From contig JAITCU010000020.1 in NCBI GenBank assembly GCA_031282835.1, positions 15,805 to 79,804 on the forward strand: a stretch of 64,000 nt of DNA, in the 5' to 3' direction. Below are positions 12,347 through 59,712 of the stretch, piece by piece. The notes under the pieces were generated by a model that worked only from the letters and a program-made list of their open reading frames with translations, searched no databases and was not told where the DNA came from. The position numbers and the translations under genes were made by a program. Source of the stretch: Puniceicoccales bacterium. Lineage in GTDB: Bacteria > Verrucomicrobiota > Verrucomicrobiia > Opitutales > JAIRLM01. Within the stretch, counting starts at the first letter, position 1; each line of letters opens with the position of its first letter.

Positions 12347-12390
12347 GAATAGAGATCCTGCAGAAGTCGCTTTTTGGCCATTTTGCAGGG
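12347..12390 (-). repeat. partial, inverted-orientation copy of the ~97-bp palindromic element
   Basis: GAATAGAGATCCTGCAGAAGTCGCTTTTTGGCCATTTTGC matches the reverse complement of the right arm of the 45982-46078 element over about 38 nt. The remainder has diverged. Confidence 0.45.
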
Positions 12391-12552
12391 CCGCTATAGA
12401 AATCTCAAAACCCATTGAAAAGTTCGCTTGGCCAAAATTTTTGCAAACAACCTGAGTTTGAGAAACGTTGGGAACAGCTTTTCGGGACGTTTGACGCTGG
12501 CTTCCAGTCGTGCTTGCTTTTCGTCGGTTTTGGTGGCGAGGATTGAAGCCTT

Positions 12553-15002: not shown

Positions 15003-16715
15003 ATGATGCATATTCCCCAAGTGACGCGCCCGCTGGAATGGCAAACCATTTGGAAAAACCCGATCAAATTATTAGCACTTGTTGGCGTCGTAGTCACCTG
15101 GCCTATTTCCGCACCCATCTACGGACTGGTCCAGCTGCTGGCGGTTATGACTCAGTTGTCCGTCATTATTGGCTTTGCCAACGGCTATTGGGCTGCCATT
15201 TCCCTGGCTTTTCTGCGTAAGGCGATAGTTCCATCGCCTGGGGCGACCCCGCCACCGCCCGAGGTAACACCGGCCCTGCCCGTGGAAAAACCGCGGCTTT
15301 CGATCGAGAAGTTGCCAATATCCACGGAAAGTCCGCCTCTTGAACATTCGAGGACGAGCCCGTCTGAGAAGGTAGATTTTCAGGGATTATCTTCTCCTTC
15401 GGTATGGGATGACCCTATAACCGATGAATTTGTAGCCCGCCAAATAGAGATAGCTCGATCATGTGGCGATGACCTTAACCTGGAGGCTTTTTTGAGGCCA
15501 ATATTCCAGCGCAATTGTGGCCTTGAATTTTTTCATAGATGCGAACTGGCAGATCCGTTTCTAAGCGCAAGAGTAAGTGGATACATCAGTGGAAGGCAGA
15601 ATCTAAGATGGATGAGACGCGGCATGCAAATTTTAAGTACGCGATCACCTAACGCATTAATGATGTGCATACCGAAATTCGCTGAATGTACTAATCTGGC
15701 CAAGCAATGTGAGACTTTCCGTTACATCCTTAGGCATTATCCTAAACGTGTAAGCGAAATTTCCTCCGCGTTTGGGCAATATGTGGAATCTTCGAAAATG
15801 TGGATTAGCCTTGAGGATTTCAGGTGTTGCATCGATGCGGAGAAGTGCAAAGAATGCTTTTCATCTGGAAGCAATCCAGCGAGACAGTTGCTGGGACATC
15901 TACCGCGGTCGGCGGTTGCCAACGGTTGGAAGGCGACGGGGATTCCGCTTAATACGTTCATCTCGGAGCAACCTCCAGATTATGATACGGTTTTACACAT
16001 TCTTCAAGGTTTGCCAGTTAACGAGGCAGCGCGGGAACTTCAAAAACTTTCCCCATCTAATGCGGAACAGTTGATCCGTGATTCTTGCGGATTATGTCCG
16101 AAGCGGACGGCGCGAATTTTACTGCAAATTGATCCGTCACTTACTGAAACAATTCTCAGGGATTCAAATTTTTCCCTTGCACAACTGTTTGAGATGGCCA
16201 GCGAAATGAAAAAGCAAGATCACACAAAATGGGCAGAATTTTTTCCACAAGAGCCGAGTAAAATTCACAAAATGTACGCGAACCCTTTAACCCGCACGTT
16301 TTCATATGTGTGCATGCTCACCATGGCCGAAGATGAACGTTTGGCATTTTTTGAACAAGATCCGCATAGAATTGCCGATTTATTGGAACCCGTTGCAGAT
16401 TCTGGATCTCCGGAGCTTGCTAGAATTTTCTGGTTAATCTTCAAAAGCGGAATTATCATCAAGCATTCATTGCCTTTACGGCGCGTCAGTTTTTGGCACC
16501 GCCTTAAGCAAATGACTGCCAAACTTGCCGAAAGTAGATCCTTTTTTGCCTTTGTCGTTAAATGCGGGAATGCCTCGGACGCTGACCTCGCCCAGTTTTT
16601 CAATCGCTTCGAAAGCGAAGTGTTTGATGGAAGCCAACTTTTAAATCAGTTACCCCCCGAAAGGGTAAAAAATATCGAGCGTTTGATGGCTGCGGGGCGC
16701 CCAAATGCTCCGTGA
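15003..16715 (+). CDS. hypothetical membrane protein with an N-terminal bilobed hydrophobic domain (Inc-like)
   Basis: 570-aa ORF. Residues ~20-75 form two adjacent hydrophobic helices (LLALVGVVVTWPISAPIYGLVQLLAV / LSVIIGFANGYWAAISLAFL). A Pro-rich linker follows, and the rest has no motif I recognise. Confidence 0.7.
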   Translation: MMHIPQVTRPLEWQTIWKNPIKLLALVGVVVTWPISAPIYGLVQLLAVMTQLSVIIGFANGYWAAISLAFLRKAIVPSPGATPPPPEVTPALPVEKPRLSIEKLPISTESPPLEHSRTSPSEKVDFQGLSSPSVWDDPITDEFVARQIEIARSCGDDLNLEAFLRPIFQRNCGLEFFHRCELADPFLSARVSGYISGRQNLRWMRRGMQILSTRSPNALMMCIPKFAECTNLAKQCETFRYILRHYPKRVSEISSAFGQYVESSKMWISLEDFRCCIDAEKCKECFSSGSNPARQLLGHLPRSAVANGWKATGIPLNTFISEQPPDYDTVLHILQGLPVNEAARELQKLSPSNAEQLIRDSCGLCPKRTARILLQIDPSLTETILRDSNFSLAQLFEMASEMKKQDHTKWAEFFPQEPSKIHKMYANPLTRTFSYVCMLTMAEDERLAFFEQDPHRIADLLEPVADSGSPELARIFWLIFKSGIIIKHSLPLRRVSFWHRLKQMTAKLAESRSFFAFVVKCGNASDADLAQFFNRFESEVFDGSQLLNQLPPERVKNIERLMAAGRPNAP

Positions 16716-16790: not shown

Positions 16791-16855
16791 TTGACAACCA
16801 GCCACTTTCAAGCAGCATAATTCCCTAGAATTCGAATTCTAAAAAAAGGATTAAT
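16791..16855 (+). promoter_or_regulatory. cassette C1 promoter/operator
   Basis: TTGACA(16791-16796), 19 nt, CATAAT(16816-16821), TCCCT, AGAATTCGAATTCT (16827-16840, a perfect palindrome), AAAAAAAGGATTAAT, then ATG at 16856. Four other loci have the same layout. Confidence 0.55.
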
Positions 16856-16981
16856 ATGAAAAAAGATACCACTATCCCCGTCTCCGCGACAAGTATTCCC
16901 GATGGCGATTTAAAGCTGGCATGTTCCGAGCCCAGGCCTGATGAAGTGATTGACTGTAACAGTGATAATGTAATCCCATGA
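16856..16981 (+). CDS. 41-codon upstream ORF translationally coupled to alaS
   Basis: MKKDTTIPVSATSIPDGDLKLACSEPRPDEVIDCNSDNVIP. An SD-like AAGGA lies 6 nt upstream. Its TGA (16979-16981) overlaps the alaS ATG (16978-16980). Below the ORF-track size cutoff. Confidence 0.45.
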   Translation: MKKDTTIPVSATSIPDGDLKLACSEPRPDEVIDCNSDNVIP

Positions 16982-20446: not shown

Positions 20447-20670
20447 TTTTTTTGAACCCGGACGCCCCCTATTTCTTTTCCGCTGACCTTGTGGGCCATA
20501 TCGACCGCGGTGTTATTTCTAAGGTCCATGTCCGTACGGTCTCTTTCAGAGTTATACCAGCGATGGATAACGAATCCGTGCGATTGCCGTGACAAATTTT
20601 CACTCCGCCTGCATATTTCGTCTTGACTTTCAATCGAAAATTCCCATAAAAAAACGCAGTTCTTTGACAT
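20392..20670 (-). CDS. hypothetical 92-aa protein downstream of repeat copy 1
   Basis: MSKNCVFLWEFSIESQDEICRRSEN... has a protein-like composition. The homologous position in repeat copy 2 lacks the ATG and has an in-frame stop. Confidence 0.35.
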   Translation of the reverse strand: MSKNCVFLWEFSIESQDEICRRSENLSRQSHGFVIHRWYNSERDRTDMDLRNNTAVDMAHKVSGKEIGGVRVQKKCLHARLNLAPLGQWSIW

Positions 20671-21160
20671 TTTTCTAAGATTTGTGAAGCATTACAGACA
20701 TCGACCTGCCGTTTGGTCCTTTCGCCGAGCATGGTACTCGCACCTGAAAATGGTGCGACCGGCCGTGGGCGAGAACAAACTAATGGTGGGAAAGTTGCTG
20801 CGGTGGTATAGCAAGTGGCAGAAAAAATTTTATTCGTATACCGTAAGATCTGCGTATTCATTGCGTTGTGATATGGGAGCAGGTGTAAGAGTCGATTTTA
20901 AAGCATTCCGACTTCTGCAAAAGCTCCCCTGTCTCGACGCTCAAACGAGCATTCCTATGCAAGCATGCGATTCTTTGATAGACTTCTAACGCTTGTGAAA
21001 TGGTGCAGATTTCGACTTGTCTCTCGGTCCTTTCGCCGAGCATGGTACTCGCGTCTGAAAATGATGCGACCGGCCATGGGCGAGAACAAACCATTGATGA
21101 GAGGATTTTGCAATGGAAAGCAAGTAGCAGAAAAAATTTTATTCATATGCCGTAATGTCT
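20640..21160. repeat. tandem duplication, period 311 bp, with a ~150-bp highly conserved core
   Basis: 20697-20855 and 21008-21160 align by eye with few substitutions (GGTCCTTTCGCCGAGCATGGTACTCGC...GCGACCGGCC.TGGGCGAGAACAAAC...GCAGAAAAAATTTTATTC). Each core contains a 7-bp stem-loop, at 20738-20758 and 21049-21069. Confidence 0.75.
20862..20981 (-). pseudogene. decayed duplicate of the 92-aa ORF
   Basis: At the position homologous to ATG 20670 the sequence reads CTA (20981-20979). The frame gives LSKNRMLA and then TAG at 20957-20955. Confidence 0.3.
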
Positions 21161-21316
21161 GAGCACCCGCTGCGTCATAACGTCCGGGCTTGTGTCTCTT
21201 TTGGCTCCGTGTCCAATTAAAAATTTACCGCATGATCGTCGCGAAAGAGCCAACGCCGTTGCCGCCGAAGCGCTACATAGGCTGGGGTTCGGGTATTTTC
21301 CGAAAAAGCAAGATGC

Positions 21317-23248: not shown

Positions 23249-23518
23249 CTAGTGAAGTAAGGTCGGAAAATAGGCGAACAGGTAGCGGGTGAATTGCATC
23301 ACCTCCGATCCGATCCACCGGGCGGTGATCAGCAACACCACGACAACGGAAATGAGTTTCATCGTAAATCCCAGGGTTTGTTCCTGAATTTGTGTAAGTG
23401 CCTGCAGGAGGCTCACGATAAGTCCCACGCCCGTGGCCACCAAAATGGATGGCAACGACAAAATGAGCACCAAAATCATGGCGCGTATGCTAAAGTCTAG
23501 GACGATGCTGTTTTCCAT
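23249..23518 (-). CDS. sctS: type III secretion export-apparatus protein SctS (YscS/FliQ family)
   Basis: 89 aa: MENSIVLDFSIRAMILVLILSLPSILVATGVGLIVSLLQALTQIQEQTLGFTMKLISVVVVLL (the FliQ signature QA.TQIQEQTL). This is the C-terminal part of a spurious 594-aa ORF-track entry. Confidence 0.85.
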   Translation of the reverse strand: MENSIVLDFSIRAMILVLILSLPSILVATGVGLIVSLLQALTQIQEQTLGFTMKLISVVVVLLITARWIGSEVMQFTRYLFAYFPTLLH

Positions 23519-23659
23519 GGAACAATCCCCGCGTCGAGTGTTGGGAAAAAACGCCATACCGCAACTCTTTTGGAAGCGGATGGGCACAAATATTGGGCTA
23601 GTGGCGAAGTCGGCCATTTCCACTTGACGCTGCCGGGATACTACCGATTCATGGTCGCC

Positions 23660-24940
23660 ATGCTGGATCTCAAATCCCTGCGCGAGCACGGCGAAGAAGT
23701 CAAACTTGCCCTGCGGAAGAAGAAATTTTCCTGCGATATTGACGCATTTTTGGCGGTGGATGCGCTGCGCCGGGAGCGGATTTCGCGGGCAGAGTTGGCG
23801 CGGGCGGAATTGAAAAAAGCAAGCGACCAATTGGCGAAATCTTCGGGCGCGGGGGAAGACATTGGAAATTTGCGCGCCGCGTTGAAGGAACAATCCGTCC
23901 ATGCCAAGGAATTGGCTGATGCGGTTCAAACCCTTGAAGGAGAATGGCAAAGGCTTTATCTGTCCATCCCAAACGTGCCCCACGAAAGTGTTCCCGAGGG
24001 AAAAACGGAAGGAGATAATGTTACCATTTCCTTCTGGGGTGATGTGAATGCCGTTTCGCCGCACGCCATGCCGCACTATGACATCCCAGGGTTTGCAAAT
24101 GGATTGGATTTTGCCCGGGGGGTGAAGGTGGCCGGTGCCGGGTTTCCCTTTTACATCGGCGACATGGCCCGGTTGGTACGGGCGCTGGTTCAATTTTTTC
24201 TTTCCGAGGCCGAGGCCAATGGTTACGTGGAGTTCTTGCCGCCGATCCTGATCAACGGAGCGAGTGCGACCGCAACGGGCCAGCTCCCGGATAAGGAGGG
24301 CATGATGTATGAAATGCCCGCGGACGGGTTCTATGCTGTTCCCACGGCCGAGATTCCTGTGACCAATTTTTTTCGCGATGAAGTTTTCAGCGAGGCCGAT
24401 TTGCCCATCCGCCGCTGTGCCCACACGCCGTGCTTTCGCCGGGAGGCGGGTAGCTGGGGAAAAGACGTGCGCGGGCTCAACCGATTGCACCAGTTCGACA
24501 AGGTTGAGTTGGTCAAATGGGTTCACCCCTCCCGGAGTTTGGACGAATTGGAACTCCTGCGCGGGAATGCGGAGGGTCTGCTCCAGAAATTGGAGATTCC
24601 CTACCGCGTGCTCGCCATTTGTGCCGGTGATATGGGGTTTCCGCATTCCAAACAGTACGATTTGGAGGTTTGGTCCGGCGGGCAGAGGCGTTGGCTGGAG
24701 GTGTCCAGTTGTAGCAGCTTTACTGATTTTCAGGCACGCCGGGCCAATATCCGCTTCCGCCCAGCTGATGGGTCGGGGCTTCAATTTGTCCACACCCTCA
24801 ACGGCTCCGGGTTGGCGATTCCGCGAGTGTTGGCAGCCATTTTGGAAAATAACCTGCAGGAAGACGGGTCCATACGCGTGCCTTCTGTGCTCCACCGCTT
24901 CTTTGGGAAGGAAGTGGCGAAATTTTCCACGACGGTGTGA
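23660..24940 (+). CDS. serS: serine--tRNA ligase
   Basis: Start moved to MLDLKSLREHGEEV (23660). Class II motifs FRREAGS and GSGLAIPRVLAAILEN. Confidence 0.95.
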   Translation: MLDLKSLREHGEEVKLALRKKKFSCDIDAFLAVDALRRERISRAELARAELKKASDQLAKSSGAGEDIGNLRAALKEQSVHAKELADAVQTLEGEWQRLYLSIPNVPHESVPEGKTEGDNVTISFWGDVNAVSPHAMPHYDIPGFANGLDFARGVKVAGAGFPFYIGDMARLVRALVQFFLSEAEANGYVEFLPPILINGASATATGQLPDKEGMMYEMPADGFYAVPTAEIPVTNFFRDEVFSEADLPIRRCAHTPCFRREAGSWGKDVRGLNRLHQFDKVELVKWVHPSRSLDELELLRGNAEGLLQKLEIPYRVLAICAGDMGFPHSKQYDLEVWSGGQRRWLEVSSCSSFTDFQARRANIRFRPADGSGLQFVHTLNGSGLAIPRVLAAILENNLQEDGSIRVPSVLHRFFGKEVAKFSTTV

Positions 24941-24965
24941 GGGCCTGGGGATGTACGCTAGGCTG

Positions 24966-25115
24966 CTACCGAAATATGAATTTTTTAAAGATGTAAAATT
25001 TGTCATTAACATATGGTTGGGTCCAGTGAACATTAATACTGATTTGAATAATACCAGAGATACTAGCTGGGAGCTTTCCTGCGCGTGACATCATAATTGG
25101 AAGGTTCAATGCCAT
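24966..25115 (-). pseudogene. 49-codon relic of a giant-gene-like 5' end (cassette C2)
   Basis: Starts with ATGGCATTG at the same place relative to the conserved leader as the giant ORF (ATGGCGCCA). GGTATTATTCAAATCA...CCAACC resembles GGCATCTTCAAATCA...CCAACC at codons 36-50 of the giant gene. It stops after 49 codons, next to the serS 3' end. Confidence 0.35.
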
Positions 25116-25218
25116 TGTTGTTTCTGGCAACTTTACCGGAGTAACAATATGGCCTTTGTTCTTTGTTAATTGATTTCCATGCATTCTTTGATCGGCTGAG
25201 CCAGCTTGTTTTTTTTAT
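25116..25218 (-). promoter_or_regulatory. conserved leader, cassette C2
   Basis: Blocks AAAACAAGCTGGCT and AATGCATGGAAATCAATTAACAAA are shared with the leaders at 32885-33007 and 56173-56284. Confidence 0.4.
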
Positions 25219-25413
25219 TTATGGTGATATTTCCCAAGTGGTTTTTGTGGCTGGCAGCGGGCTAGCCCGTTCTAAAAACGCAGGAAATTCTCGTGCAGAC
25301 GAGGGTTCCAGTTTGAAGCCAGGTGTCAGTCCTGGGGTTAGGGACGTTTGCAGTCCCCAATCGTCATAAAAAATATCTGCCTCGAACGCGGCGGTAACGG
25401 TGGTGCTTTTCAT
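25219..25413 (-). CDS. cassette small protein, 64 aa (C2)
   Basis: MKSTTVTAAFEADIFYDDWGLQTSLTPGLTPGFKLEPSSAREFPAFLERASPLPATKTTWEISP. SD AAAGGAGAA upstream. It aligns full-length with the 61-aa C3 ORF, with an in-frame 9-nt indel, the same stop and several third-position-only differences. Confidence 0.5.
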   Translation of the reverse strand: MKSTTVTAAFEADIFYDDWGLQTSLTPGLTPGFKLEPSSAREFPAFLERASPLPATKTTWEISP

Positions 25414-25477
25414 ATTGAATTTTCTCCTTTGAACTCGAATTCGCAGGTTATATTGTTGGCAAGCGGGTGTTTGTCAA
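25414..25477 (-). promoter_or_regulatory. cassette C2 promoter/operator
   Basis: TTGACA(25477-25472), 19 nt, TATAAC, CTGC, GAATTCGAGTTC (25442-25431), AAAGGAGAAAATTCAAT, then ATG at 25413. Confidence 0.55.
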
Positions 25478-26650: not shown

Positions 26651-26747
26651 TAACAGAGGTCCTGCAAAAGTCGGAAACACTGTCTTAAGACCCGCATTTC
26701 ATGAGGGGCAAAATGGCCCAAAAGCGACTTCAGCAGGATCTCTAATG

Positions 26748-26750
<3 letters not shown>
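26651..26750 (+). repeat. ~97-bp palindromic element, copy A
   Basis: TAACAGAGGTCCTGCAAAAGTCGG...CGACTTCAGCAGGATCTCTAATGTTA: imperfect ~20-bp terminal inverted repeats around the internal hairpin CCCGCATTTCATGAGGGG. The right arm contains the stop codon of the Pro-rich gene on the other strand. Confidence 0.7.
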
Positions 26751-28382
<1,632 letters not shown>

Positions 28383-45872: not shown

Positions 45873-45937
45873 TTGACAAGCGCCCATTCTCAAGCAAGAT
45901 AGTCCAAGAATCTGGATTCTAAAAAAGAAAGTTCAAT
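45873..45937 (+). promoter_or_regulatory. cassette C4 promoter/operator
   Basis: TTGACA(45873-45878), 19 nt, GATAGT, CCA, AGAATCTGGATTCT (45907-45920), AAAAAAGAAAGTTCAAT, then ATG at 45938. Confidence 0.5.
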
Positions 45938-46111
45938 ATGAAAAATGTCATCATTATCGCCCCGCCCATGGCAGATATTTTTAATAGAGGTCCTGCGAAA
46001 GTCAGAAACACTGCCTTGAAACCCGCATTTCATGCGGGGCAAAATGGCTCAAAAGCGACTTCTGCAGGACCTCTATTATCCTCTTACCAACGTAGCCGGC
46101 TAAAACATTAA
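45938..46111 (+). pseudogene. cassette small ORF interrupted by the palindromic element (C4)
   Basis: MKNVIIIAPPMADIFN shares the ADIF(Y/N) motif with C2/C3. From codon 16-17 the frame runs into the 97-bp element and reads through it to a stop at 46109-46111. Confidence 0.4.
45982..46078 (+). repeat. ~97-bp palindromic element, copy B
   Basis: TAATAGAGGTCCTGCGAAAGTC...GACTTCTGCAGGACCTCTATTA, with the internal hairpin CCCGCATTTCATGCGGGG. Confidence 0.75.
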
Positions 46112-55600: not shown

Positions 55601-56172
55601 TCCTCAGATTTTGCGGCAATTTGTGTTTTCAGCTCCGGTTCCCATAACGCCGCAAACGGGACCATTTCCGCGGAGAATGCTTGCGCCTGCTTGGCCATTG
55701 AGCGCAGTTCGGCGACCAAATCATGGGCCTCGCGGCCTTTGAGGATCCCCTCCATTTGGTCGAATACCCGCACGCTTGTTTCCAGCGGAGATTGCGAATC
55801 GCCATCATTTTCAATGGAAGTTTCGTGGATGAATTCGCGCATCAGGACCGGACCAACGGGCGCAGAGAAATGAGACGGGCTTTCCTCCTCGGGCGGCAAT
55901 GCGTTGGATGGAGCAAACGCCTCGGAAAACGGGTTGATATTCATAATGGCGGTATTATACATCTCCCGGGAGAGAACGCAATGCTCTCCCCATGGAATGT
56001 CTATTATAAATAGACAATTCCCCGGGTTGGCAAAATTTAAAGTAGAATTTTTGATTTGAAGATGCCCTTTTAGCAGACACACTCCCTTCTTTTGTTTTTT
56101 CATATTTTCTCGCGCTTTCTTAATATTAGAGCACGCCACGCCACCGGAAGGGTCTTCCGGACATGGCGCCAT
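46675..56172 (-). CDS. giant (3165-aa) tail-anchored protein with a SecA/SF2-like P-loop ATPase module (candidate effector)
   Basis: Uninterrupted 9498-nt ORF. Motifs: QMQMGAGKTSVVIP (nt 50173-50187), FIGDEIDRIL (49774-49785), VGFSGTM (48832-48846) and YDEQRCTGTDLPLP (~48364-48393). A C-terminal bilobed hydrophobic anchor at 46678-46860. No signal peptide. The start codon is uncertain. Confidence 0.9.
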   Translation of the reverse strand: MAPCPEDPSGGVACSNIKKARENMKKQKKGVCLLKGHLQIKNSTLNFANPGNCLFIIDIPWGEHCVLSREMYNTAIMNINPFSEAFAPSNALPPEEESPSHFSAPVGPVLMREFIHETSIENDGDSQSPLETSVRVFDQMEGILKGREAHDLVAELRSMAKQAQAFSAEMVPFAALWEPELKTQIAAKSEEISEKIRTLNPGQRFCMPLTYPEAHGQTSCCYVVVEKLDDGTFYFHEIDVSSSRARGEFDKQRHASFVEKSRLGRSFHLNADALKSILPKFIEFAAQQGNFEKLWGGEDPSTQIGHEVLLDGHAALRGDLFSKVSDKDPWASLAALFRMTIYQHLLRKHPHGTPSELKALVKRSGEYTRLIELFNRLGALGALHDHCSNVLTDPAGDPARKMDQLWMLRESVGTTELFLRKYGHRLKELSADAAPYVDGMEALLNRCDTTLKSPEYYQAMHQAETRNAFPETIAPPPGGDMSAKIQSVLHKATEADVVPHIEIVRPEIELLKRDYAKVLNAMANFSFDTTSKPYDYAGIFYAKELMSLLPLPNDPFWAQGNSDDHKRCVAIFARFLDKLTEQMGGSLSSVTDGYRHFFSSGLEEQILDQSSAELPWHIAAPFAAEVTNIRLVTFWLLKMPGGLGGATDDSLSAYSLDCHVFELFTANDACQSMSAADRERQQKVLDFYRHNKSQTVDFSLGCGTIDRSDSYMRSYCNYGGHGPDEGMSQLQRFSAACPGFQNVAGKIVPGAPDGQMDKFFEERKWAYVWARSVDDTKYVFEDQCAHWESVRKILGGIPGPKLLFNEFYPHQLPSVQLESACVQSDQLPLMWDYWDERDKFNWRCFNDENHVSALDPWNVTHVPELVCDGRGAPAKLEYHSKRFLNGGNTAFAEHPLFYEIGKALSVPGTQVYSLFDIINSHLDLFSRFGVDDREQHGKTMLLALLDNMLLANFQQAERPESIPNAAENRSHYVMDGQLFRERPFASRPVCSLADEIERNPEKLFRVLQDTYNSVLRLHLEMKPFQRPDVHALCYMAHLIHQCQEIHMEIHGCPFSSTEEPIFPSVELRLQQLDEIERKFGRTLGSDEQAILHLARVELAVERMKFFTDGSKIEEIDDGLLVGFYGDVFASRALKLQGIPHSCYKTICGTVPELGGLLQKSPNKRARIERSILASFCQRMGGEVPKNSWVDFNNFHVFWGGHEIRTADTLTSARDYQRLFGPENREFIHSGEWTSFTDPAYGNVRLSYGTHGQVISTNFGKSDQWWQYAPARILQRALQLPNWLCSETYTAWMGPGGQLQVRDRKHPEIIYFQSQGSGPDWKLECTFEPYKGLFLAPHPNPQSVTWLSRFENEKNCAFFVDAHNKLQKVWAPRYDLCFELRDDKWMQRGTDYQLVDVPEMYAGPGGNKKSNPLGSYKNAIFLHNTKQPGSYKVIMPAVGLQSQRDDALDDAAPDGVAQMLGRAGPIGATVSSAFCNTPTMDKPFIGTATPVEAHFVQRREEPGATRLDGLSNDGNLQLGVIFLLQGDYDQAAEYFKRLHAGAALSPVHHQLMIDCLLEGRRMKGYSGKVAAVHMLLLEKWAEMYGLNCNDIAVLKPREGALKFENEPLGTLLETYLKNLPSMPLQLRMDPRRERRLLEHLASIGILNPQEPIIAKRLLSLDHFLRPGSVAAEFAQPAERLRHYDPLLAKEEKVQAMESGSSAAHDLQVLPMQDELFRVGTALGGLRRALVAFHQNPSPAPASPLHFTPADYLKKLSPDDRDTIGDAFQKSLEELNGEIQTGAEQLALKRARNEELKKVPFDCDAASQSIEVHRQKMRAETRKLHEELLALVNKPSPMLMAQDVVVCSAPIKLKAVIAAYGQFATRVPPDTARFFHFLKKYNPSITPDDVPQIMECSHQYMRHKIMFRRMANLMQVIQDLQRAGGNDGARRSACQSRLFDQLEEWDDTYNPESYPYALLNEYVSGKHARRGQIDILKKLCDGLGAENPTDTVIQMQMGAGKTSVVIPTYAARVAQQRKLPFVCAHNQSQFDALRAELAPSFSRLNIRVVSANFTLQDTREPWNLEWLLREMQMALEERDRVFVIDPTTIEILEAQFKLLARKPQRNKTDELCLQTLLDIFKLLGEDAIFIGDEIDRILNPLEYLNVSLPPAAGQLPGMPQAHLDFISDVIISVAEICPELRQNQQHLMAPDRVQEVLRRLSQNVLEEKFAIQIPDEMRNSFHKYVLGQFDNVPETDTATRQEANAFLAFLQQQKEQGTAASLRSYDRILIARGLLGTLLPHLFTQKYNQNFGFGLDGACIPFKGPNEPNLGSEFKNCYQTACCFFAGISIDGVPLRMLESYVDMLSRLVADEESQRKAFDEFDEIFKDCNYEDRPVTVETLVTTADPSTRKKICECLCAFLRQDTQISGRQKVARIFAQKSIHFSTQSVESKSAQFPRLFSRTVGFSGTMANKGVYNFAKVDIQLQAGSDGQVIARNCELMGARPQPIQFVDNGEARPTAKMLLEAHVGGVTGLRALIDAGALLNGQHPRDVARDILAFAQKDIPDVRHVLYYDPDRQTFFVLCADRTEPIAIRPMNREALAAVVNDFNALFAYYDEQRCTGTDLPLPIDCHALQTLDPSWLTTDRNAQANIRPRAFLSSQTIDYMALEKSRPQFLRLADGGEPTAADIYATLQRNQSRSIIQQYIRASYDKVDTLVDDFIRRTAIALASDPWRLSIFSNAVGELLTKVDDFSPEAMFFALQRTMSLNEAVEAYYNRKVQLLKTKLEQSQLLDRFDEQAAKTFNETKVRILQGTEGICVTVGADNYAGDVDASVQVEVQEQTEVEVNCNISVNLQLEEFLTRVGYGDRLDPKEEDLLIIDGPTDMHTFFADKSRSVPEQIREHGGPMDPKDREIYSQFDACFPSDLYLSRNFAQSCETEHTVFDRTQKHCSYLVITWESERTNPRAIAVSKQEYDTLRAKEGNLQNCCIYLAGTGTCLHGQIPDELKEFRQRKLCELALFNANIPYLLTENSDLVAQVMAADGEGHHDPKLLNLRQNYLLLRTPTQDREDVRTTISHSRPLGMGCGKTWPDGDGNIPVREDIAVVPDRPSKSKIMQVTATRKILHPRWAIALTIISGLLLIAAALALVFTNIIGILAIGIWGYALLFFPGAASGIAAVALWIPRWVG

Positions 56173-58927: not shown

Positions 58928-59620
58928 ATGCAAACAACACCGCAGCAGGCCCCATGGGAGAAGGGGGAATTCGTTCTCATCGCTATCGATGGCGGGGCGG
59001 GATCGGGAAAGACTTCGACGGCCCGTGTCATCGCCGAGCGGAACAATTTTGCGTTTGTTTCCACGGGAGAGCACTACCGCATCCTCACCCGTTACCTGGC
59101 GGAGGAAAATATTTCGCCCGGAAACGCCGCGGCCCTCCGGGGGGCACTGGGCCGGCTGCGACCCACCACGCAATTCATCGGCAACCAGGCACATATGTGC
59201 CTGGACGGGACTGTTGTGCCTGCTGAGGAGCTCCACAACGGCGTAATCAATACCATCGTCGCTGACTATGCCCAGAACCCCACTTTGCGGGAATTTCTCC
59301 ATGACTATCAGCGGCAGCTACCCCAGACGGCCCAGGCAGTCGGCTATGCCGGACTTGTCATCGAGGGTCGAGACATGACCAGCGCCGTTTTTCCCGAGGC
59401 CGATCTGTGTGTTTTCCTCGACGCCGATCCCCGGACACGACAACTTCGCCGAAAAATGGAGGGCATAGCCGATGACATCCATGCCCGGGATACCAAGGAT
59501 AGTCCACGATTACAACGAAGAGACGGCATGTTGTACGTGGATTCCACGGAACTTTCCCTAGACGAAGTGGTCTCCATAATTCAAAAAGAAATACAAAAAC
59601 TAACCGTCGAACATCATTAG
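58928..59620 (+). CDS. cmk: cytidylate kinase
   Basis: IAIDGGAGSGKTSTARVIA...VSTGEHYR. Start set at ATG 58928, preceded by GGAGGAAAGA. The longer ORF-track start (58781, ATGA overlap with glmS) would add a 49-aa hydrophobic extension. Confidence 0.85.
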   Translation: MQTTPQQAPWEKGEFVLIAIDGGAGSGKTSTARVIAERNNFAFVSTGEHYRILTRYLAEENISPGNAAALRGALGRLRPTTQFIGNQAHMCLDGTVVPAEELHNGVINTIVADYAQNPTLREFLHDYQRQLPQTAQAVGYAGLVIEGRDMTSAVFPEADLCVFLDADPRTRQLRRKMEGIADDIHARDTKDSPRLQRRDGMLYVDSTELSLDEVVSIIQKEIQKLTVEHH

Positions 59621-59712
59621 AAGTCCTGCAAAAATCAGAAACACTGCCTTGAAGCTCGCATTTTATGCGGGGTAAAACGGCCAAAAAGCGACTTCTGCAG
59701 GACCTCTAATAG
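59617..59712 (+). repeat. ~97-bp palindromic element, copy C
   Basis: TTAGAAGTCCTGCAAAAATCAG...GCGACTTCTGCAGGACCTCTAATAG. The left arm contains the cmk stop codon TAG. Confidence 0.7.

Follow-up and report, generated by a model that had tools for sequence, protein, structure and literature searches.

An interspersed repeat carrying promoter-like and translation-start signals in a Puniceicoccales genome

A probable promoter-bearing interspersed repeat

The 64,000-nt stretch of DNA analysed here (the window) belongs to a metagenome-assembled genome (MAG) of a Puniceicoccales bacterium (Verrucomicrobiota; GCA_031282835.1, JAITCU010000020.1; locus tags LBB26_) and carries five related loci, C1 to C5, each with promoter-like sequence ahead of a small open reading frame (ORF). 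We read these loci, with a probability of roughly 0.7, as copies of a lineage-specific, high-copy, asymmetric interspersed repeat of ~0.45-0.6 kb that bears a promoter, a dyad, a ribosome-binding site (RBS) and an ATGAAA start, and not as peptide genes. The first-pass annotation had offered either a regulon or a promoter-carrying dispersed repeat. The second is supported by homology over hundreds of bases that includes neutrally evolving parts, by deletion derivatives, by a copy interrupted by a miniature inverted-repeat transposable element (MITE), by the presence of at least 28 copies in the MAG, and by empty sites in a relative. Common descent accounts for the similarity of the copies across hundreds of bases, so their shared motifs need no regulon. 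The evidence fits selection on the initiation signals, not on the encoded peptide.

In each copy we recognise a putative sigma-70-type promoter (TTGACAA-19 nt-nATAnT), a dyad close to where transcription is predicted to begin, a purine-rich RBS and ATGAAA; the repeat may act as a portable module for the initiation of both transcription and translation. The comparisons included three further loci of the window genome (L024, L025 and L026) and seven copies, O1 to O7, from a sister population (JGI sample 3300042612; AlaS 85% identical, synonymous divergence (dS) 0.5-0.8 vs the window).

Detection and extent of the window copies

All five strings quoted in the first-pass annotation are present at their positions and on their strands, and the layout it described as common to them is real: the pattern TTGACA-N19-NATNNT matches four times in the window vs 0.40 expected, and none of 100 shuffles reached four. 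The fifth copy, C2, falls outside this pattern because of its hexamer. The count of five stands as well, an nhmmer profile of the five recovering exactly these (E 1e-34 to 1e-39), with no further match above noise. The extent had been underestimated: the supposed 63-65-nt block is part of a homology of ~150 nt in all five copies (~65 nt upstream of TTGACA to ~20 nt inside the ORF) and of ~400-490 nt in C2 and C3. The C2-C3 alignment (402 nt at 74%) spans the promoter and the 61-64-codon ORF together with a 130-nt 3' segment, which ends at a conserved ATTATGG. C2 or C3 could also be aligned with three more loci of the window genome over 215-377 nt, and patchy homology extends ~100 nt beyond the 3' segment.

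The other three window copies are altered in different ways (Table 1). In C1, the 3' junction lies ~15 nt before the alaS start, ~26 homologous codons are left, and the TGA of the ORF overlaps the alaS ATG at 16978 (ATGA). In C4, family homology ends at codon 16, exactly at the inserted MITE. C5 runs straight into a giant gene (3165 aa, DUF3638), the annotated ATG of which is at 56172; the first ~15 codons of this gene are homologous to the 3' end of the repeat (cf. L024), and its true start may be a downstream ATG (MKKQKK...). The remainder of the window, previously taken to be single-copy, holds the 94-nt MITE four times (once in the C4 ORF) and a 310-nt tandem duplication.

Table 1. Positions of the repeat copies, their parts and other features (window coordinates unless a contig is named)
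Feature	Positions	Strand	Remark
C1	16716..16981	+	internal-deletion derivative
C1 -35 TTGACA	16791-16796	+
C1 hexamer CATAAT	16816-16821	+
C1 dyad TAGAATTcgAATTCTA	16826-16841	+
C1 ORF	16856-16981	+	41 aa
C2	25044..25541	-	full length; begins directly after nth stop, faces 3' end of convergent serS
C2 -35	25477-25472	-
C2 hexamer TATAAC	25452-25447	-
C2 dyad GAATTcgAGTTC	25442-25431	-
C2 ORF	25413-25219	-	64 aa; annotated LBB26_02000
C2 3' segment	~25218-25090	-
C2 mini-ORF	25180-25166	-
C3	32833..33319	-	full length; between groEL and convergent mpl
C3 -35	33257-33252	-
C3 hexamer TATGGT	33232-33227	-
C3 dyad TGAATTcgAGTTCA	33223-33210	-
C3 ORF	33193-33008	-	61 aa
C3 3' segment	~33007-32884	-
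C3 mini-ORF	32971-32957	-
C4	45806..46111	+	MITE-interrupted; divergent from fmt, faces 3' end of giant gene
C4 -35	45873-45878	+
C4 hexamer GATAGT	45898-45903	+
C4 dyad AGAATCtgGATTCT	45907-45920	+
C4 ATG	45938	+
C5	56141..56464	-	most of ORF gone by internal deletion, 14 codons left
C5 -35	56392-56387	-
C5 hexamer GATAAT	56367-56362	-
C5 dyad AGAATCagGATTCT	56358-56345	-
C5 ORF	56329-56285	-	14 aa
C5 3' segment	56286-56141	-
C5 mini-ORF	56250-56236	-
Giant gene, first ~15 codons	56172-56101	-	homologous to repeat 3' end, cf. L024 335-370
Giant gene, downstream ATG	56103	-	possible true start
Upstream extension, sister subfamily	L061 7770-7890
Upstream extension, sister subfamily	L065 13060-12965	-
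Upstream extension, sister subfamily	L067 12975-13040
MITE	12348-12440	-
MITE	26651-26744
MITE	45982-46075		within C4
MITE	59615-59708
MITE	L025 303-392		directly after promoter repeat
570-aa ORF	15003-16715	+	between dnaA and alaS
Tandem duplication	20620-21175		between alaS and sctU
serS	23570-24940	+
594-aa ORF	23249-25033	-	artefact
544-aa ORF	26748-28382	-
GGC/GGT-rich tract	27625-28057		inside 544-aa ORF

The small ORF and its peptide

An in-frame 9-nt indel and aligned TAA stops were seen between the C2 and C3 ORFs, as first described, and C4 does share the ADIFN motif. The first-pass annotation had pointed to about seven third-position-only differences between C2 and C3, but third positions do not predominate: by codon position the differences number 12/9/8 over 45 aligned codons, and the ratio of nonsynonymous to synonymous divergence (dN/dS) is 1.00. 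Over ten copy pairs dN/dS ranged from 0.46 to 2.28 with a mean of ~1, and the differences were spread evenly across codon positions (e.g., 12/9/8 and 8/16/5) with no third-position excess. The orthologs of C1 and C2 (O1 and O2, respectively) depart from the C2/C3 frame after ~codon 17-20, O3 shifts out of frame and then back, and frameshifting indels were found in L025 (11-nt deletion) and L026 (1-nt deletion). Most sister-population copies use a different frame for the C-terminal half (...ENFPRFYNGPARCQ...). The first-pass annotation favoured real translation of a conserved peptide and had named frameshifts in orthologous copies as the observation that would speak against it; with such frame switches in O1 and O2 and a dN/dS of ~1, this claim is not supported. 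No constraint was seen on the peptide, the repeat body including the small ORF diverges at about the neutral rate, and any peptide products would be without a sequence-dependent function. Nor was a conserved gene ("gene relics") recognised downstream, as the read-through tails of P0128, P0129, P0131 and P0138 are mutually unrelated.

The same observations bear on a different explanation, a fast-evolving family of small proteins, e.g., type III secretion substrates or host-directed peptides, in which only the first ~15 residues (MK-S/N/K, then Thr/Ile/Ala-rich) and expression matter, the remainder being unconstrained or under diversifying selection. Type III signals lie at the N-terminus, are rich in Ser/Thr/Ile and tolerate frameshifts, and genes for a type III secretion system are present in the genome (sctC, sctS, sctT, sctU and a CesT-like chaperone, found in the window along with dnaA, alaS, serS, groEL, dnaK and nrdD). 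The start-codon context is invariant, 28 such ORFs are annotated in one MAG, and in C2, C3, O1 and O2, the full-length copies found by DNA homology and not by protein search, the ATG frame is open over 61-96 codons (P ~0.01, substitution-only simulation). This openness hints that translation itself, or the peptide, may matter; the argument is weakened by a second frame of the ORF region that is also largely open. A protein family nevertheless appears improbable to us given the dN/dS of ~1 without third-position excess, the positional orthologs that differ in sequence after ~codon 17-20, the different frames used for the C-terminal half in the two populations, and the retention of the promoter in C5 and C1, of which 14 and ~26 homologous codons, respectively, are left; moreover, the protein matches, having come from a protein search, are biased to open frames. 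Neither purifying selection nor maintenance of the frame in orthologs, by which conserved small-protein families are recognised, was found here. In the literature, nothing was found on the MAG, on its run accession or on Puniceicoccales type III secretion, and nothing in that on verrucomicrobial symbionts could be linked to the MAG.

Promoter-like signals, dyad and start codon

The initiation signals show a different picture from the drifting ORF. In the 12 copies that retain 5' sequence (both populations taken together), TTGACA is always kept and its distance to the nATAnT-like hexamer is always 19 nt, though indels are frequent elsewhere. The dyad begins 2-5 nt past the hexamer in 11 of the 12, and its centre is CG in 9. 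AAYATGAAA(A) is found in every start-retaining copy except O7 (TATATGAAAG). In a seven-copy alignment, the invariant runs TTGACA and ATGAAAA were unexpected under column permutation (P = 5e-6). The -10 hexamer proposed at 19 nt is not the only candidate: the printed spacers also contain CAAnAT at 16 nt, with T in the last position in each of the 10 copies compared for it, and with this second register the promoter need not be exotic.

The dyad arms vary between copies (TAGAATT, GAATT, GAATC/AGAATC, GAAAGCT, GACT, CGATT and GTGTT) while the symmetry is retained, arm-length changes are matched between ortholog dyads, and G-T pairs occur in C2, C3 and O1. Varying arms with kept symmetry favour a hairpin over one sequence-specific operator. 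As RNA hairpins, the dyads are weak (-1.4 to -4.2 kcal/mol, not better than shuffles), and a stable 5' RNA hairpin was rejected on these energies despite the conserved symmetry.

These features bear directly on the regulon offered by the first-pass annotation, in which a single dimeric regulator would bind the dyad as its operator and the 19-nt spacer would perhaps belong to an activator-dependent (MerR-like) promoter. Such control is compatible with the repeat reading rather than opposed to it: the fixed place and CG centre of the dyad and the spacer length that stays constant despite indels elsewhere speak for it, the weak RNA hairpins leave room for a role of the dyad at the DNA level, and the spacer falls within the 19-20 bp of MerR-type promoters, though the alternative hexamer at 16 nt is possible. 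For the promoters a regulon of this kind may apply, but differing arms and G-T pairs fit a single operator poorly and better suit a hairpin. By eye, some spacers show a weak TTGAnAA...TTnTCAA symmetry and no clear dyad (this was not formally scored), no MerR-like domain or regulator gene was found among the window ORFs scanned, and the copies resemble each other by descent over hundreds of bases. A common regulator therefore seems unlikely to us.

The 3' segment and the ends of the unit

Within the 3' segment, 8 of 10 copies from both populations contain a mini-ORF (M-x-x-N-stop: an SD (Shine-Dalgarno)-like GGAG/GGAA, ATG, three codons and TAA), and the TAA of this mini-ORF is, in some copies, also the stop of the long ORF. 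It falls in the most conserved stretch of the 3' segment and may be merely inherited sequence. The 3' hairpin (CTTCGGC...GCCGAAG) is unrelated to the 5' hairpin (CGGGrTTyCCCG) and is not conserved, being broken in several copies. A terminator on the antisense strand at the ORF/3' boundary was dismissed as a family feature because it occurs only in the subfamily of the window population, and a unit bounded by direct repeats or by a second, degenerate 3' cassette was rejected because the 3' flank matched the 5' cassette no better than shuffles.

Could the unit be a structured non-coding RNA or a cis-regulatory leader, e.g., a small RNA or a leader-peptide attenuator? The N-terminal codons, rich in Thr/Ile/Val/Ala, loosely resemble those of amino-acid operon leaders, and the mini-ORF and hairpin of the 3' segment might be seen in the same light. 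The C2 and C3 units, however, gave no Rfam match at E <=5 (in the window as a whole, three tRNAs alone pass the gathering threshold), RNAalifold gave no consensus structure for the 3' segment (3 pairs, -2.1 kcal/mol), no terminator-like site was found in sense orientation at either C2 or C3, and the downstream genes are unrelated and do not form biosynthetic operons. We regard an RNA of this kind as very improbable. The thrL/ilvL-type attenuation leaders, marked by runs of the regulatory codon, by alternative terminator/antiterminator hairpins and by a cognate biosynthetic operon further on, differ in the same respects: here no conserved structure follows the ORF, no terminator was found on the sense strand, and downstream lie alaS, the giant DUF3638 protein, transporters, ppdK and rplY, or no gene at all.

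Copy number and distribution in relatives

To estimate how widespread the repeat is, a profile of seven family peptides was searched against 1.84 billion representative proteins. It gave 33 matches, which together with the C2 annotation correspond to 28 distinct LBB26_ locus tags in the MAG; the remaining matches are a few JGI-only proteins of a related bin and one spurious low-complexity match. C2 is the only one of the five window copies among the 28 tags, and the true copy number in the MAG is therefore probably several-fold higher. Copies are intergenic and occur about once per 6-13 kb. Three Logan contigs of the window genome start inside the dyad/RBS stretch, which fits assembly breaking at the repeat.

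A search with AlaS revealed Puniceicoccales MAGs and bins that form a small clade, with identities of 79-85%. The sister population has 7 repeat copies in 45 kb (five of them in two other contigs): O1, upstream of alaS, occupies the site of C1, and O2, between nth and serS, that of C2. Both sites are empty in the 79% relative L064 (dnaA-53 nt-alaS and serS-17 nt-nth; dS >1.5 from the window), and no repeat copy was found in 22 kb of L064 nor in 22 kb of the 82% relative L062. In these comparisons the family is confined to the two sister populations, with at least some insertions older than their split. Whichever part of the unit is compared, the positional orthologs C2 and O2 show an identity of 0.54-0.60, about the identity of roughly 0.57 calculated for neutral sites at a dS of 0.65. 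Paralogs within the window genome are 0.77-1.00 identical, i.e., closer than the positional orthologs, which points to gene conversion/concerted evolution or to continued spread within each lineage. In a subfamily of the sister population (O1, O4 and O7), the -35 is preceded by ~100-120 nt of additional sequence that contains short CAAAAATTCGCC-like reiterations and is seen in none of the window copies.

Beyond this clade, scans for the cassette pattern gave 23 matches in genome contigs and 34 in metagenome contigs, and none of these loci matched the cassette profile; we judged them chance matches, those in genome contigs being single matches in unrelated taxa. Collections of plasmids and phages gave no match to the repeat. 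The statement that this is not a described element thus holds as far as tested, with no match in Rfam, plasmids, phages or other genomes.

Near-neutral divergence of orthologs, copies that are truncated, deleted or interrupted by the MITE, patchy homology ~100 nt past the 3' segment, and further signs of decay and of repeat load in the genome would all be found if the copies were dead relics, i.e., decaying 5' fragments of a once multi-copy gene or insertion sequence that is now functionless. We doubt this explanation and consider it improbable, since TTGACA, the spacer length and ATGAAA(A) are fixed in 12 copies of two populations amid drift, since copies within the genome are closer than orthologs, and since the protein profile search retrieved no master gene or transposase with this N-terminus.

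Neighbouring genes and the proposed role

The genomic context was tallied for 15 loci of the window genome and the sister population. Nine of them face a co-directional gene: alaS (twice), the giant gene, an ABC substrate-binding gene, a Na+/H+ antiporter, ppdK, an ABC-F gene, a 278-aa gene and rplY. The other six face a convergent one: serS (twice), mpl, the 3' end of the giant gene, a glycosyltransferase and a Na/Ala symporter. This split is not different from random. Upstream of a co-directional gene, the repeat would very likely supply a promoter and a translated leader, as at alaS (where the leader's stop and the gene's start overlap in ATGA), the giant gene, ppdK, the ABC-F gene, the antiporter and rplY. 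From a copy facing a convergent gene (serS, mpl or the giant gene's 3' end), no more than antisense RNA or a short leader transcript would be expected. O5 retains the promoter part only, ahead of a gene with its own ribosome-binding site.

Several points weigh against the repeat as a promoter-bearing module. Six of the 15 copies lack a co-directional gene, and the supply of gene promoters therefore cannot be its general role. A 19-nt spacer is unusual for sigma-70 promoters, the hexamers of O2 and O4 are poor, and promoter activity is predicted from sequence conservation only. No terminal inverted repeat joins the ends of C2, C3 or C5, and no mechanism of mobilisation was found; no transposase was seen in the window or in the related loci sampled. 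The empty sites of L064 may reflect loss there instead of gain in the window clade, and the open ATG frame of the full-length copies, described above, belongs here as well.

A bolder version, which taken as a whole we consider unlikely, is that the repeat is a self-propagating promoter/RBS/start cassette on which this host-associated lineage depends. It would head a sizeable share of the transcription units, including the housekeeping genes alaS and rplY, and its ORF would be open since translation of an arbitrary leader is required. Leader translation would, e.g., protect the long 5' region from premature termination or hand ribosomes on to the following gene, with a by-product of about a hundred transcribed, translated and neutrally drifting ORFs that might serve as a proto-gene pool.

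Comparison with known elements

The closest described concept is that of the putative mobile promoters, i.e., repeated homologous promoter regions in front of unrelated genes, the families of which are mostly lineage-specific, with their mobility unknown (Matus-Garcia, Nijveen & van Passel 2012, PMC3488235). They are defined broadly and operationally as 50-100 nt at >=80% identity upstream of CDSs (coding sequences) that share no homology, the threshold applied being >=50 nt at >=80% within 100-150 nt upstream of translation starts, repeated in the genome (PMC3488235). As in their Treponema example (PMC3488235), conservation in the present repeat reaches the translation start; unlike mobile promoters, the repeat is much longer, has its own start codon and leader ORF, shows only 57-83% identity in most pairs, and in ~40% of the sampled copies is without a co-directional gene. 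It agrees with that class only in part. From promoter to ATG, C2-C3 are 83% identical (74 columns), C1-C5 76% and other pairs 57-70%; C4-L026 (97%) and C3-L025 (100%) reach their values only over short retained overlaps. Some pairs thus pass the 80% threshold and most fail. The downstream CDSs are non-homologous if real genes are counted (alaS, the giant gene, antiporter, ppdK, ABC-F and rplY), but not if the annotated small ORFs borne by the repeat are taken as CDSs.

Neisseria Correia elements, Rickettsia palindromic elements, REP/BIME and ERIC sequences are high-copy, intergenic and lineage-specific, influence the expression of neighbours and are common in host-associated bacteria; they are 30-300 nt long and are palindromic or have terminal inverted repeats with target-site duplications. 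The repeat described here resembles such promoter-bearing MITE-like repeats in being high-copy, lineage-specific and intergenic, and differs from them in that it is ~0.5 kb long, asymmetric, without terminal inverted repeats and equipped with a complete -35/-10/RBS/ATG set. It also differs from the IS200/IS605-derived non-autonomous PATE, which have similar subterminal hairpins at the two ends and a genomic TnpA/TnpB partner, since its 5' and 3' hairpins are unrelated and no transposase was seen in the window or in the related loci sampled. Translationally coupled upstream leader ORFs are similar as a general mechanism: the stop of C1 overlaps the alaS start, and start context and openness are kept while the peptide is not. 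Unlike in such leaders, an overlap with the next start is found only at C1, stop-to-start distances vary, and many copies have no downstream gene.

Significance

For practical purposes, the chief result is that the small "genes" are ORFs borne by the repeat: the ~28 "hypothetical proteins" annotated from it in the MAG are not to be regarded as a conserved protein family. Short-read assemblies also break at the repeat, as seen in the three Logan contigs that end inside it. If the promoters are active, the expression signals of many unrelated genes would be set by one repeat family, in a verrucomicrobial genome that is small and probably host-associated; this would be a clear natural example of regulatory rewiring via promoter propagation. 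The combination of fixed initiation signals with a drifting, frame-switching ORF moreover makes it a convenient system for studying product-independent selection on leader translation.

Other features of the window

The MITE of ~94 nt is unrelated to the promoter repeat. It has terminal inverted repeats (AGAGGTCCTGCrAAAGTC ... GACTTCTGCAGGACCTCT) that enclose an inner hairpin (CCCGCATTTCATGCGGG), and its copies are 81-89% identical to the reference copy. The tandem duplication has a period of ~310 nt, with 172-nt and 57-nt blocks that are 76-81% identical, and sits among small ORFs without family matches.

The 594-aa ORF on the strand opposite to serS is an artefact, since the match to SctS (Bac_export_3) is limited to the last ~75-90 residues and the rest is antisense of serS. 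The 570-aa ORF has no Pfam or NCBIfam match and is absent in L064; it is 35% identical to its counterpart in L061 (dN 0.66), with adjoining genes at 85-97%, and is either a very fast-evolving or a decaying gene. The 544-aa ORF received no family assignment except a sub-threshold Mitofilin match, and the GGC/GGT-rich tract inside it has a 12-18-nt periodicity.

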